Assembly (NCBI RefSeq): GCF_003334765.1
Contig: NZ_QOWT01000033.1
Length of the DNA stretch: 44,004 bases
Source: Escherichia coli
GTDB taxonomy: Bacteria; Pseudomonadota; Gammaproteobacteria; Enterobacterales; Enterobacteriaceae
Strand: one strand, 5' to 3'
Every line of letters starts with the position of its first letter. Position 1 is the first letter of the stretch. A program made the position numbers and the translations under genes. The notes below the pieces were generated by a model. It was not told the origin of the DNA. It made no database searches and saw nothing but the letters and a program-made list of their open reading frames with translations. This document shows positions 4,762 through 41,753 of this stretch, piece by piece.

Positions 4762-5412
4762 TCAGAAAATGCGCTCCTGATGCACCCATACCGCTGCTTC
4801 CACGCGAGACTTGAGCTTCATTTTCTTCAGCATGTGCTTGACGTGCACTTTTACTGTGCTTTCGGTGATATCCAGGCGGCGGGCAATCATCTTGTTCGGC
4901 AAACCCTGGGCAATCAGCTTGAGAATATCGCGCTCGCGTGGGGTTAACTGGTTAACATCGCGCTCAGTAGTGGCACGGTTAGCGCGCAAGCTGGCGGCCA
5001 GAACAGGCGTTAATGCTTCGCTTAATACCATTTCGCCAGCAGCTGCCTGATGCAATGCTTTCAGCAGATCTTCCGGTTCCATATCTTTTAACAGATAGCC
5101 ATCCGCGCCGCGTTTCAGTGCGGTGACCACATCTTCTTCATGGTTAGAGACGCTGAATACCACAATGCGCCCTGAGAGGGACTTTTCGCGCAGTTTATCC
5201 AGCGTTTCCAGACCGTTCATGCCGGGCATATTGAGATCTAACAGGATCAGATCGGGATCAAGAGACTCCGCCAGTTCAATACCCTGTTCGCCATTACTCG
5301 CTTCGCCAACCACGGTGATATCTGGTGCCATACTGATAAGCTGTTTTACGCCAGTTCGCAGCATCGGGTGATCGTCAATCAGCAGGATAGTAGCCGGTTC
5401 CTGATTACTCAT
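4762..5412 (-). CDS. narL: nitrate/nitrite response regulator NarL
   Basis: ORF 4762..5526; recognised NarL begins at internal Met ([21 protein letters not shown]...), 216 aa; receiver domain plus LuxR-type HTH. Confidence 0.95.
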
Positions 5413-7201
5413 GGGTATCTCCTTGGACGTCTGTGAAAGTTTTTTCGGGAATAAAGGTGACCACCACTTCGGTGCCACCTGATTCACGACGGCGGACGCG
5501 GCAATCGCCTCGTAAACTTTGCGCACGATCGCGCATTATTATCATGCCGTAGTGATTGCTGCGGATGGCATTTTCAGGCACGCCGCAGCCGTTATCCTGG
5601 ACGGTCAGTTTGACCTGATTATCGTTTTGCGCCACCGTCACCACGACTTCACTCGCTTGCGAATGTTTGAGGGCGTTACTTAATGCCTCACGGGCAATTT
5701 GCAACAAGTGGATTGCCTGATGCGAAGGCACCAGGCGAGGCGGCAATTGATAATCCAGCTTCACCGGGAAGCCAAATTTGGCGCTGTACTCTTCGCAACT
5801 CGCCTCCAGCGCCGGACGTAATCCAGGCTCGGTGAGCTGCAAGCGGAATGTGGTGAGCAATTCACGCAACTGCGCCCAGGATGCATTCAGTTCGTTACGG
5901 ATCTGACTTAACAGTTCGCGGCTGCTTTCTGGCAGCGCATCGCCCTGCATCTGTAAACAACTCACCTGCATCTTCATGCAAGAGAGAGATTGGGCAATAG
6001 AATCATGCAGTTCGCGCGCAATGGTGGCACGCTCTTCCATCACGATCAACTGTTGCTGACGTTCCTGATGGCGATCCAGCGCCAGCGTGGCGGTGAGTTG
6101 TTCAACCAGGGTATCCACCAGTTGTTGTTGATCATGGCTAAGATGACGCCCCTGCGGCAGGGTCGCCAGCAAAATACCGTACTGCGTATGAGAGTCAGCC
6201 AGCCGCCACTTCAGGGTCGTGCCGCGATCACCAACGGGTAATACGCCGCGCGGGCAGAGCTGGCAGCCTTTATCATCACAAGTCATATCTGGCTGGCAGG
6301 TAAACTCCTGATGATTCTCTTCATCATCAGTGTCATACACCCGCAATTCGATATCACGTAGCAGGGTTAAATTCTGTAAGCCGTTGAGTACAGGTGACAG
6401 GCGTTCACACAGCGGGGCGCGGGAATGCAAACGGCGGTTAGCCTGCCATAAAAAAGAGAGGATCTGATTTTTATGCTCCAGCCCGGCGGTTTTCTCCTGA
6501 ACCCGCTGCTCAAGTACGGCATAACTTTCGGCCAGTTCTGCAGACATATTGTTCAACGCAGTTCCAAGCATCGCCATTTCGTTGCGCCCGCTGATGTTTG
6601 CGCGTTGGGTAAAATCGCGATGACTGACGGCACTCGCCATTGCCAGCAGTTGCCGCCACGGTTGTAGCAGTCGCGCCCGCAACCAGATAATAGTGAACAC
6701 CAGTAAAAGTGCCATAAATACCGCCATTACCCGATGGACCAGTACCACTGTCTCGATGCGCATTTCCGTGGTGCGGTCAAAACCAGATACCAGTTGATCA
6801 AGCCCGGCAACAAACTGGCTGACATCCGCTGACACCGTTTCTCGGTTTTGTGCACGCATCAGCGCAGGGATCAGTTCATTACGCCAGTAATCTTGTAAAC
6901 CCTGTAATTGCGCCAGTTGTCCGTCTCGTTCTGCTGCTCGAGTCAACTCGGCGCTAAATGCCGTTTGTTCCATCTCTTTAATTAAGGGCTTGTCTTTCTC
7001 GCTTAATGGCACTGCCGCCAACAGACGGTAACTTTGCATGCGCAGCGATCCCGCTTTGTTGATCGCATGGGCGCTGCCCTGAACGCCTTGCACCAGCCAG
7101 CCAGAAACCGCCATCCCTGCCAGTCCAATAGCAGTAGAAAGCAACACAATAAGCGCAACCTGATTAACCAGGGTGAGCGGAGAGAGACAACGTTTAAGCA
7201 T
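5405..7201 (-). CDS. narX: nitrate/nitrite sensor histidine kinase NarX
   Basis: 598-aa ORF ([21 protein letters not shown]...); stop codon overlaps the narL start by 8 nt. Confidence 0.95.
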
Positions 7202-7297
7202 GTAAACCTCTTCCTTCAGGCTTTAAATGAGCAATAACCTTAATGAATGTGACGATACATTCTGGAATGGCAGTATTCTCGGCTATTGGCTGAAGTA

Positions 7298-7324
7298 TAC
7301 CCATACCCGGAAAGAGTTACTCCT
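7298..7324 (+). promoter_or_regulatory. candidate NarL heptamers (TACCCAT, TACTCCT) upstream of narK
   Basis: Heptamers matching the NarL consensus TACYYMT seen in the narX-narK divergent region, roughly 200 bp upstream of the inferred narK start site. Confidence 0.5.
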
Positions 7325-7466
7325 TATTTGCCGTGTGGTTAGTCGCTTTACATCGGTAAGGGTAGGGATTTTACAGCACCGTGAAAAATCTCATAATTTT
7401 TATGAAGTCACTGTACTCACTATGGGTAATGATAAATATCAATGATAGATAAAGTTATCTTATCGT

Positions 7467-7480
7467 TTGATTTACATCAA
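7467..7480 (+). promoter_or_regulatory. FNR box TTGATttacATCAA (narK promoter)
   Basis: Perfect match to FNR consensus TTGAT-N4-ATCAA, about 60 bp upstream of the narK ATG. Confidence 0.75.
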
Positions 7481-7539
7481 ATTGCCTTTAGCTACAGACA
7501 CTAAGGTGGCAGACATCGAAACGAGTATCAGAGGTGTCT

Positions 7540-8931
7540 ATGAGTCACTCATCCGCCCCCGAAAGGGCTACTGGAGCTGTCATTACAGATTGGCGACCGG
7601 AAGATCCTGCGTTCTGGCAACAACGCGGTCAACGTATTGCCAGCCGCAACCTGTGGATTTCCGTTCCCTGTCTGCTGCTGGCGTTTTGCGTATGGATGTT
7701 GTTCAGCGCTGTTGCGGTGAACCTACCGAAAGTCGGCTTTAATTTTACGACCGATCAGCTATTTATGTTGACTGCGCTGCCTTCGGTTTCTGGCGCGTTA
7801 TTACGTGTTCCATACTCCTTTATGGTTCCTATCTTCGGTGGTCGTCGCTGGACGGCGTTCAGCACCGGTATTCTGATTATTCCTTGCGTCTGGCTGGGTT
7901 TTGCCGTGCAGGATACCTCCACGCCTTATAGCGTCTTCATCATCATCTCTCTGCTATGCGGCTTTGCTGGCGCGAACTTCGCATCCAGTATGGCAAACAT
8001 CAGCTTCTTCTTTCCGAAACAGAAGCAGGGTGGCGCGCTGGGTCTGAATGGTGGTCTGGGAAACATGGGCGTCAGCGTCATGCAGTTGGTTGCTCCGCTG
8101 GTGGTATCACTGTCGATTTTCGCAGTATTTGGTAGCCAGGGCGTCAAACAGCCGGATGGGACTGAGCTGTATCTGGCGAATGCGTCCTGGATATGGGTGC
8201 CGTTCCTTGCCATCTTCACCATTGCGGCGTGGTTTGGCATGAACGATCTTGCTACCTCGAAAGCCTCCATCAAGGAGCAGTTGCCGGTACTCAAACGGGG
8301 TCATCTGTGGATTATGAGCCTGCTGTATCTGGCAACCTTCGGCTCCTTCATCGGCTTCTCCGCGGGCTTTGCAATGCTGTCAAAAACGCAGTTCCCGGAT
8401 GTTCAGATTCTGCAATACGCTTTCTTCGGGCCGTTTATTGGTGCGCTGGCGCGTTCTGCAGGTGGTGCATTATCTGACCGTCTGGGCGGAACTCGTGTCA
8501 CGCTGGTGAACTTTATTCTGATGGCGATTTTCAGCGGCCTGCTGTTCCTGACCTTACCGACTGACGGGCAGGGCGGAAGCTTCATGGCGTTCTTCGCGGT
8601 CTTCCTGGCGCTGTTCCTGACAGCTGGGCTGGGTAGTGGTTCCACTTTCCAGATGATTTCAGTGATCTTCCGTAAACTGACAATGGATCGCGTGAAAGCA
8701 GAAGGGGGTTCTGACGAACGTGCGATGCGTGAAGCGGCAACCGACACGGCGGCGGCGCTGGGTTTCATCTCTGCGATTGGCGCGATTGGTGGCTTCTTTA
8801 TCCCGAAAGCGTTTGGTAGCTCGCTGGCATTAACGGGTTCGCCAGTCGGCGCAATGAAGGTATTTTTGATTTTCTATATCGCCTGCGTAGTGATTACCTG
8901 GGCGGTATATGGTCGGCATTCTAAAAAATAA
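7540..8931 (+). CDS. narK: nitrate/nitrite transporter NarK (MFS)
   Basis: ORF 7534..8931; recognised NarK starts MSHSSAPERATGAV... at the ATG at 7540; 463 aa. Confidence 0.95.
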   Translation: MSHSSAPERATGAVITDWRPEDPAFWQQRGQRIASRNLWISVPCLLLAFCVWMLFSAVAVNLPKVGFNFTTDQLFMLTALPSVSGALLRVPYSFMVPIFGGRRWTAFSTGILIIPCVWLGFAVQDTSTPYSVFIIISLLCGFAGANFASSMANISFFFPKQKQGGALGLNGGLGNMGVSVMQLVAPLVVSLSIFAVFGSQGVKQPDGTELYLANASWIWVPFLAIFTIAAWFGMNDLATSKASIKEQLPVLKRGHLWIMSLLYLATFGSFIGFSAGFAMLSKTQFPDVQILQYAFFGPFIGALARSAGGALSDRLGGTRVTLVNFILMAIFSGLLFLTLPTDGQGGSFMAFFAVFLALFLTAGLGSGSTFQMISVIFRKLTMDRVKAEGGSDERAMREAATDTAAALGFISAIGAIGGFFIPKAFGSSLALTGSPVGAMKVFLIFYIACVVITWAVYGRHSKK

Positions 8932-9178: not shown

Positions 9179-9208
9179 TACCCATGGGGAATACTCCTTA
9201 ATACCCAT
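9179..9208 (+). promoter_or_regulatory. NarL heptamer cluster (TACCCAT, TACTCCT, TACCCAT) upstream of narG
   Basis: Three consensus NarL heptamers within 30 bp, about 200 bp upstream of the inferred narG start site, matching the known far-upstream NarL site architecture. Confidence 0.75.
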
Positions 9209-9331
9209 CTGCATAAAAATCTTAATAGTTTAAATAACTACAGGTATAAAACGTCTTAATTTACAGTCTGTTATGTGGTGGCTGTTAATTATCCTAAAGG
9301 GGTATCTTAGGAATTTACTTTATTTTTCATC

Positions 9332-9345
9332 CCCATCACTCTTGA
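9332..9345 (+). promoter_or_regulatory. FNR box TTGATcgttATCAA (narG promoter)
   Basis: Perfect FNR consensus about 100 bp upstream of the narG ATG. Confidence 0.8.
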
Positions 9346-9446
9346 TCGTTATCAATTCCCACGCTGTTTCAGAGCGTTACCTTGCCCTTAAACATTAGCA
9401 ATGTCGATTTATCAGAGGGCCGACAGGCTCCCACAGGAGAAAACCG

Positions 9447-41591: not shown

Positions 41592-41605
41592 TTGATTTAA
41601 ATCAC
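41592..41605 (+). promoter_or_regulatory. FNR-like box TTGATttaaATCAc upstream of ompW
   Basis: 13 of 14 match to the FNR consensus about 155 bp upstream of the ompW ATG; ompW is known to be anaerobically induced. Confidence 0.55.
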
Positions 41606-41753
41606 ATTAACCAGGATTCTCAATGCAACTTCTAAATTAATCCAGATCAATAAAGGGTGAATTATCATATGTAATGTGATCTATGTAGGATCATTTGTTA
41701 CTCCAATGTAGGTATATTCGTCACGTTTTTATAACCATAACGACGGAGCGGAT

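Follow-up and report, generated by a model that had tools for sequence, protein, structure and literature searches.

Identity and genomic setting of the control region

The control region shared by narX, which encodes a nitrate sensor, and the divergent narK, which encodes a nitrate transporter, contains an inverted pair of heptamers of the type bound by the nitrate regulator NarL, TACTCAC-t-ATGGGTA (7414-7428). Is this pair a true NarL target and, if so, of which kind? In the earlier note on this DNA, the region was described as the control region of the divergent narX and narK, containing an FNR box and heptamers of the NarL type, and the pair was said to resemble a NarL/NarP 7-2-7 site with 1-nt rather than 2-nt spacing and to be perhaps weak or non-functional. 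Here, we have examined the sites of the oxygen regulator FNR and of NarL in this region within the window (the whole stretch of DNA that was analysed, 44,004 nucleotides) and in orthologous regions of other Enterobacterales.

The limits of the intergenic region were exact: the ATG of narX is at 7201 (minus strand) and that of narK at 7540 (plus strand), with narL past narX and narGH past narK. The 338 bp in between (7202-7539) had a match in 5416 of 5426 complete E. coli genomes (95-100% identity) and were 100% identical to positions 1277619-1277956 of E. coli K-12 MG1655 (NC_000913.3). The flanking annotation, the identity with MG1655 and the sites listed in databases all agreed with the earlier description of the region, which is the known E. 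coli narXL/narK control region, and its motifs are already catalogued FNR and NarL sites. Over 7391-7451, only 1248 of 4400 matching records were identical to the window. At position 7407, which closely precedes the heptamer pair and falls within no motif, G/A variation is common in E. coli.

The window as a whole differed from MG1655. It contains a single tRNA-Tyr/RtT unit (16293-16555) in place of tyrT and tyrV with rttR in MG1655, and further indels downstream of narGHJI shift the coordinate offset. On account of this single RtT/tRNA unit and the other indels, the sequence identifies the window as coming from an E. coli strain other than K-12 MG1655, though its narX-narK region is identical. 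Because of the indels downstream of narGHJI, distant features were mapped to K-12 by BLAST, feature by feature. An Rfam scan of the whole 44-kb window gave no match within 7202-7539, and its sole matches were RtT and tRNA at 16.3-16.6 kb. An open reading frame at 7227-7445 (72 aa) spans non-conserved intergenic sequence, in which orthologs have indels. In addition, a ModE DNase I footprint has been reported within the narX-narK intergenic region, and ModE is thought to act on narXL.

For phylogenetic footprinting, a search of genome contigs with NarK yielded 80 loci, and the 46 of them with narX divergently upstream were kept as orthologous regions. These 46 Enterobacterales regions, from Escherichia, Citrobacter, Enterobacter, Klebsiella, Raoultella, Kosakonia, Rahnella and others, were aligned.

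FNR sites and the narK core promoter

The following features of the narK core promoter were identified:

7467-7480, no strand: FNR site 1, TTGATttacATCAA, 10/10 match to TTGAT-N4-ATCAA, centre placed at -41.5 of the narK promoter, a class II position
7429-7442, no strand: FNR-like site 2, aTGATaaatATCAa, 1 mismatch, centre at -79.5, 38 bp upstream of site 1
7502-7507, plus strand: narK -10 hexamer TAAGGT, whose position follows from FNR at -41.5
7515-7539, plus strand: predicted narK leader, with Shine-Dalgarno AGAGG at 7530-7534

The perfect FNR box that had been claimed at 7467-7480 was indeed present, and it was perfect in all 46 orthologous narX-narK regions. By chance, such boxes should number about 0.046 in 44 kb and 0.00035 in 338 bp; the 44-kb window contains three, at narK, at narG (9342-9355) and inside purU. 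The one in purU (TTGATAAGCATCAA, 17078-17091) lies within the coding sequence (ORF 16715-17557, minus strand). Two 1-mismatch FNR boxes (41592-41605 and 41637-41650), 45 bp apart, were also observed 104-162 bp upstream of the ATG of ompW (41754), which is a reported FNR target. At narK, an FNR ChIP peak with a site at -41.5 and activation by FNR has been described (Myers et al., 2013), and reviews place narK under direct control of both FNR and NarL. In Salmonella, narK mRNA was drastically lowered in the absence of NarL or of FNR and was nearly unaffected in the absence of NarP.

Since FNR site 1 was placed at -41.5, the narK start was inferred to be A7515, which lies 7 nt after TAAGGT and 41.5 bp from the centre of this site. 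The hexamer has the form TAAKGT in 34 of the 46 orthologs. All heptamer positions given below (-214 to -67) were computed from this inferred start with FNR site 1 fixed at -41.5. When the same rule was applied to narG in the window, its heptamers were placed at -208, -195, -185 and -89. Two of these fall at the -195 and -89 regions known to be essential for narG (PMC4549865), and the placement rule is thus sound. A scan of 7100-7650 for sigma-70 promoters and terminators returned a single plus-strand promoter candidate, TTTACA-16-CATAAT (7370-7397), which was rejected on the grounds that one such match compares with 1.3 in shuffled sequences and that neither hexamer is conserved.

FNR-like site 2 was absent from the earlier note. 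Among the loci compared, only those of E. albertii and E. coli had two or fewer mismatches. Because the other 44 orthologs had 3 to 10 mismatches, this putative site is lineage-specific and confined to Escherichia.

NarL heptamers and their conservation

A NarL weight matrix was built from 63 heptamers of genes other than narK (MotifAdjuster Additional file 4). Scanning 7202-7539 with it, a check that the earlier note had proposed, revealed a clear excess of heptamers: 3 matches reached 9 bits or more where the window's own density predicts 0.12, 13 reached 5 bits or more where 3.9 would be expected, and the two halves of the inverted pair scored 6.5 and 9.1 bits. The NarL sites recorded for b1223 (narK) in RegulonDB/CoryneRegNet are given in the MotifAdjuster supplements (PMC2718512), where the in vitro NarL binding study of Li, Kustu and Stewart (1994) is cited for them. 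When mapped with their flanks, the nine heptamers listed there for b1223 were all located in the window at the stated sequences. A further entry for narK, CACTGTA, is a transcription error, and such database transcriptions are known to contain errors; protection of 7414-7428 by NarL is documented at second hand, through them. The nine listed heptamers are as follows:

7298-7304, plus strand: NarL heptamer TACCCAT, 7/7 match to TACYYMT, centre at -214, 9.1-9.2 bits
7318-7324, plus strand: NarL heptamer TACTCCT, 7/7 match to TACYYMT, centre at -194, 9.3-9.4 bits
7335-7341, minus strand: NarL heptamer GTGGTTA, centre at -177, below 5 bits
7352-7358, minus strand: NarL heptamer ATCGGTA, centre at -160, 7.0-7.1 bits
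7358-7364, minus strand: NarL heptamer AAGGGTA, centre at -154, 7.0-7.1 bits
7414-7420, plus strand: NarL heptamer TACTCAC, left half of the inverted pair, 6/7 consensus, centre at -98, 6.5 bits
7422-7428, minus strand: NarL heptamer TACCCAT (ATGGGTA on the plus strand), right half of the inverted pair, 7/7 consensus, centre at -90, 9.1 bits
7432-7438, minus strand: A/T-rich NarL heptamer ATAAATA, centre at -80, 5.4-5.5 bits, overlapping FNR-like site 2
7445-7451, minus strand: A/T-rich NarL heptamer ATAGATA, centre at -67, 5.4-5.5 bits

Of the NarL-type heptamers that had been noticed within 7298-7324, both TACCCAT and TACTCCT were full matches to the consensus and were well conserved: the -214 heptamer was identical (TACCCAT) in 40 of the 46 orthologs, the -194 heptamer had the form TACYYCT in 40, and the spacing between them was 20 bp in all 46. 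The distance from the -214 to the -98 heptamer was 116 bp in 39 of the 46. Five database-listed heptamers, three at 7335-7364 and two at 7432-7451, go beyond those that had been named in the earlier note. Neither group was conserved outside Escherichia among the 46 orthologs, and the middle heptamers (7335-7364) were polymorphic within Escherichia as well. Judged from this alignment, the heptamers under selection are those at -214, -194 and -98, and the lineage-specific elements are those at -177, -160, -154, -80 and -67 together with FNR-like site 2. A literature search for NarL ChIP-exo data at narK found none.

Elsewhere in the window, a pair of NarL heptamers, each scoring 9 bits or more, was found at 5406-5417 (TACTCATGGGTA), overlapping by 2 nt and lying exactly across the narX stop codon and the narL start codon. 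They are probably a coding coincidence.

A further conserved element was observed between the upstream and downstream NarL sites:

7381-7401, no strand: A/T-rich block GTGAAAAAtctcataaTTTTT, centre at about -123

Its elements GTGAAAAA and TTTT were nearly invariant in the 46 orthologs, and an A/T tract at -135 of narG (AAACGTCTTAATT) resembles it. The block is probably a DNA-bending (IHF-type) site, with a weak match (3 mismatches) to the IHF consensus WATCAANNNNTTR. IHF is presumably involved at the narK promoter; a literature search on this promoter and IHF found no report. The only match to the IHF consensus with a single mismatch (7460-7472, minus strand) overlaps the FNR box and was judged to be due to chance.

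The inverted heptamer pair at 7414-7428

The two halves of the pair are separated by a single base, t7421, so that the description of a 1-nt spacing, distinct from a 7-2-7 site, was correct. The doubt about its function was a different matter. Both heptamers are database-listed NarL sites of narK, with Li, Kustu and Stewart (1994) cited as the source, and for this reason the suggestion that the pair is weak or non-functional is not supported. The left half is conserved as well, and the 9.1 bits of ATGGGTA are about as high as the score of any heptamer in the narX-narK region. Apart from the known adhE 7-2-7 site, the narK pair was the only convergent one in the 44 kb in which both members scored at least 6.4 bits at a spacing of 0-4; for a spacing of 1-2, 0.0014 such pairs per 338 bp would be expected at random.

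Comparison across genera revealed a different behaviour of the two halves. The left half was TACTCAC or TACTCAT in 38 of the 46 orthologs, with close variants in the rest, and its start was 53 bp from FNR site 1 in all 46. With the left heptamer as anchor, the right half was then scored at spacings 0-4 in every ortholog. Among the window and the 46 orthologs, the best right half was found at spacing 1 in 24 of 47 and at spacing 2 in 21 of 47. A right half of the form xxGGGTA at spacing 1 was present in Escherichia, most Citrobacter and Pseudocitrobacter; when the right half of E. coli is read at spacing 2, it scores -2.1 bits. Right halves at spacing 2 were observed in Pseudescherichia (AGGGGTA/AGGAGTA, 9.1-9.3 bits), Leclercia (GGGAGTA, 6.6 bits), Kosakonia, Phytobacter and relatives (ATGAGCA, 5.5 bits) and Enterobacter wuhouensis (AGGAGCA, 5.6 bits). 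Klebsiella, Raoultella, Rahnella and many Enterobacter had a poor right half at either spacing. On the basis of this alignment, it is the left half that is constrained, and the right half is labile from genus to genus.

With regard to the 7-2-7 class, convergent TACYYMT-like heptamers are present at 7414-7428, but the exact 2-bp spacer is not found in E. coli. According to the literature, NarP binds only 7-2-7 sites and NarL also binds other arrangements, and dimer binding has been described for the 2-bp spacing. The 7-1-7 arrangement fits narK being NarL-specific and not NarP-responsive. Taking the database listing and the sequence together, we consider the pair to be a genuine NarL target, but one whose 1-bp spacer sets it apart from canonical 7-2-7 dimer sites.

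Alternative explanations

Two other readings of the pair have to be weighed against this one. It could be a functional 7-2-7-type dimer site that tolerates a 1-bp spacer, at which a NarL dimer, and possibly NarP, would be bound as at nirB, fdnG and napF. Both halves are good heptamers in convergent orientation, such pairs are very rare by chance, and a true 7-2-7 arrangement occurs at the same position in several genera (with AGGGGTA, AGGAGTA, GGGAGTA or ATGAGCA as the right half). However, the spacer is 1 bp in all Escherichia and nearly all Citrobacter loci, the literature ties both dimer binding and NarP to the 2-bp spacing, deletion of narP barely affects narK in Salmonella, and the MotifAdjuster table (PMC2718512) does not mark narK as 7-2-7, all of which makes a dimer site of this kind quite improbable. 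It could also be that only the left heptamer TACTCAC (-98) matters and that ATGGGTA is a fortuitous or weakly contributing neighbour, in which case the pair would not be a functional unit. Such a view would suit the near invariance of the left half and the variability of the right half, which takes 26 different forms among the 46 orthologs and, in roughly half of them, falls short of 4 bits at both spacings. We regard it as doubtful, considering that ATGGGTA is a database-listed NarL site with a 7/7 match to the consensus (9.1 bits) and corresponds in both position (-90) and orientation to the essential -89 heptamer of narG; moreover, about half of the orthologs have kept, at spacing 1 or 2, a right half that reaches 4.3 bits, compared with about 2% by chance.

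A third possibility concerns the far-upstream heptamers and depends on a candidate narX promoter, which was proposed from conservation:

7275-7280, minus strand: candidate narX -10 hexamer GAGAAT (ATTCTC on the plus strand)

Across the 46 orthologs, positions A2, A4, A5 and T6 of this hexamer showed little or no variation, and its distance from the TACCCAT heptamer was 23 bp in every case. The narX start is predicted near 7268 on the minus strand, which would put TACCCAT at the -35 position of the candidate promoter, and the -214 and -194 heptamers may double as sites of NarL autoregulation at narX. In a stronger form, the heptamers at 7298-7324 would serve mainly narX, at about -33 and -53 of the GAGAAT promoter, and would mediate positive autoregulation of narXL. 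The conserved hexamer at its invariant distance speaks for this, as does the fact that databases hold no separate NarL sites for narX; in addition, a source citing Darwin and Stewart (1995) reports that narXL is activated by NarL and repressed by FNR. At the same time, databases assign these heptamers to narK, the equivalent -208 and -195 heptamers are needed for activation of narG, which has no divergent gene, and the 116-bp distance from the -214 to the -98 heptamer is also kept in 39 of the 46 orthologs. The narX and narK roles are not mutually exclusive in any case. A main role in narX expression is therefore conceivable, but it is not the reading that we would favor.

A proposed compound promoter for narK

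The explanation that we prefer, with a probability of about 0.9, is that narK is driven by a narG-type compound promoter, in which an FNR class II site is combined with multiple NarL sites, the pair at 7414-7428 being one of the NarL targets. The layout is of the narG type, with centres at -214/-194 and -98/-90 in narK compared with -208/-195/-185 and -89 in narG. In such a promoter, FNR, which is active in the absence of oxygen, would bind the box at -41.5 and recruit RNA polymerase as a class II activator. NarX would sense nitrate, leading to phosphorylated NarL, which would occupy single or irregularly spaced heptamers, that is, the -214/-194 group and the -98/-90 group. Weaker, lineage-specific heptamers are present in E. 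coli in addition. The A/T block at about -123 between the two groups would probably be bound by a bending protein (possibly IHF, as at narG), which would bring the upstream NarL to the promoter.

The regulation of narX and narK is already known, and the sites have been present in regulatory databases since the 1990s. What is added here is a ranking of the listed narK sites by conservation and the observation that the spacing of the right half-site shifts across genera. Our check removes the doubt on the 7414-7428 pair and suggests an idea, small but testable, on how half-site spacing bears on NarL/NarP specificity. According to this idea, the register of the half-site beside TACTCAY would have switched, as the Enterobacteriaceae evolved, between 7-1-7 (Escherichia and Citrobacter) and 7-2-7 (Pseudescherichia, Leclercia, Kosakonia, Phytobacter and Enterobacter wuhouensis), deciding whether narK responds to NarL only (nitrate) or also to NarP (nitrite). 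We consider this speculative and would give it low odds; if true, it would represent a natural rewiring of two-component cross-talk through half-site spacing.

Comparison with known systems

The closest known system is the narK promoter of K-12 itself (RegulonDB/CoryneRegNet; Bonnefoy and DeMoss, 1992; Kolesnikow et al., 1992; Li, Kustu and Stewart, 1994; Myers et al., 2013), which is the same DNA with the same heptamers and an FNR site listed at -41.5, with zero sequence difference.

Next comes narGHJI, whose control region is also contained in the window:

9179-9390: narG control region, with TACCCAT, TACTCCT and TACCCAT (9179-9208), AGGGGTA (9298-9304) and a perfect FNR box (9342-9355)

Like narK, narGHJI has its perfect FNR box placed at -41.5, the heptamers TACCCAT and TACTCCT near -200, an inverted heptamer at -89/-90 and an A/T-rich tract between the heptamer groups, and it has no canonical 7-2-7 site. 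The -89 heptamer of narG, AGGGGTA, is the positional and orientational counterpart of ATGGGTA at -90 of narK. Several differences could also be observed. The upstream heptamers of narG are three, 13 and 10 bp apart from start to start, whereas those of narK are two and 20 bp apart; in narG, unlike narK, there is no good partner heptamer beside that at -89; and only narK has an additional FNR-like box at -79.5 and shares its control region with the divergent narX.

The 7-2-7 sites of nirB, fdnG, napF, nrfA, yeaR, ogt and adhE resemble the narK pair in that two convergent TACYYMT-type heptamers are present. The window contains one of them, the canonical TACTCAC-tt-CTGGGTA (27254-27269), about 200 bp upstream of the adhE start, which is a known NarL site listed for b1241 and is adjoined by a 1-mismatch FNR box (27278-27291). 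In these sites the spacer is 2 bp, in contrast with 1 bp in the E. coli narK pair, which is unlisted as a 7-2-7 site and belongs to a gene that is NarP-independent in Salmonella.
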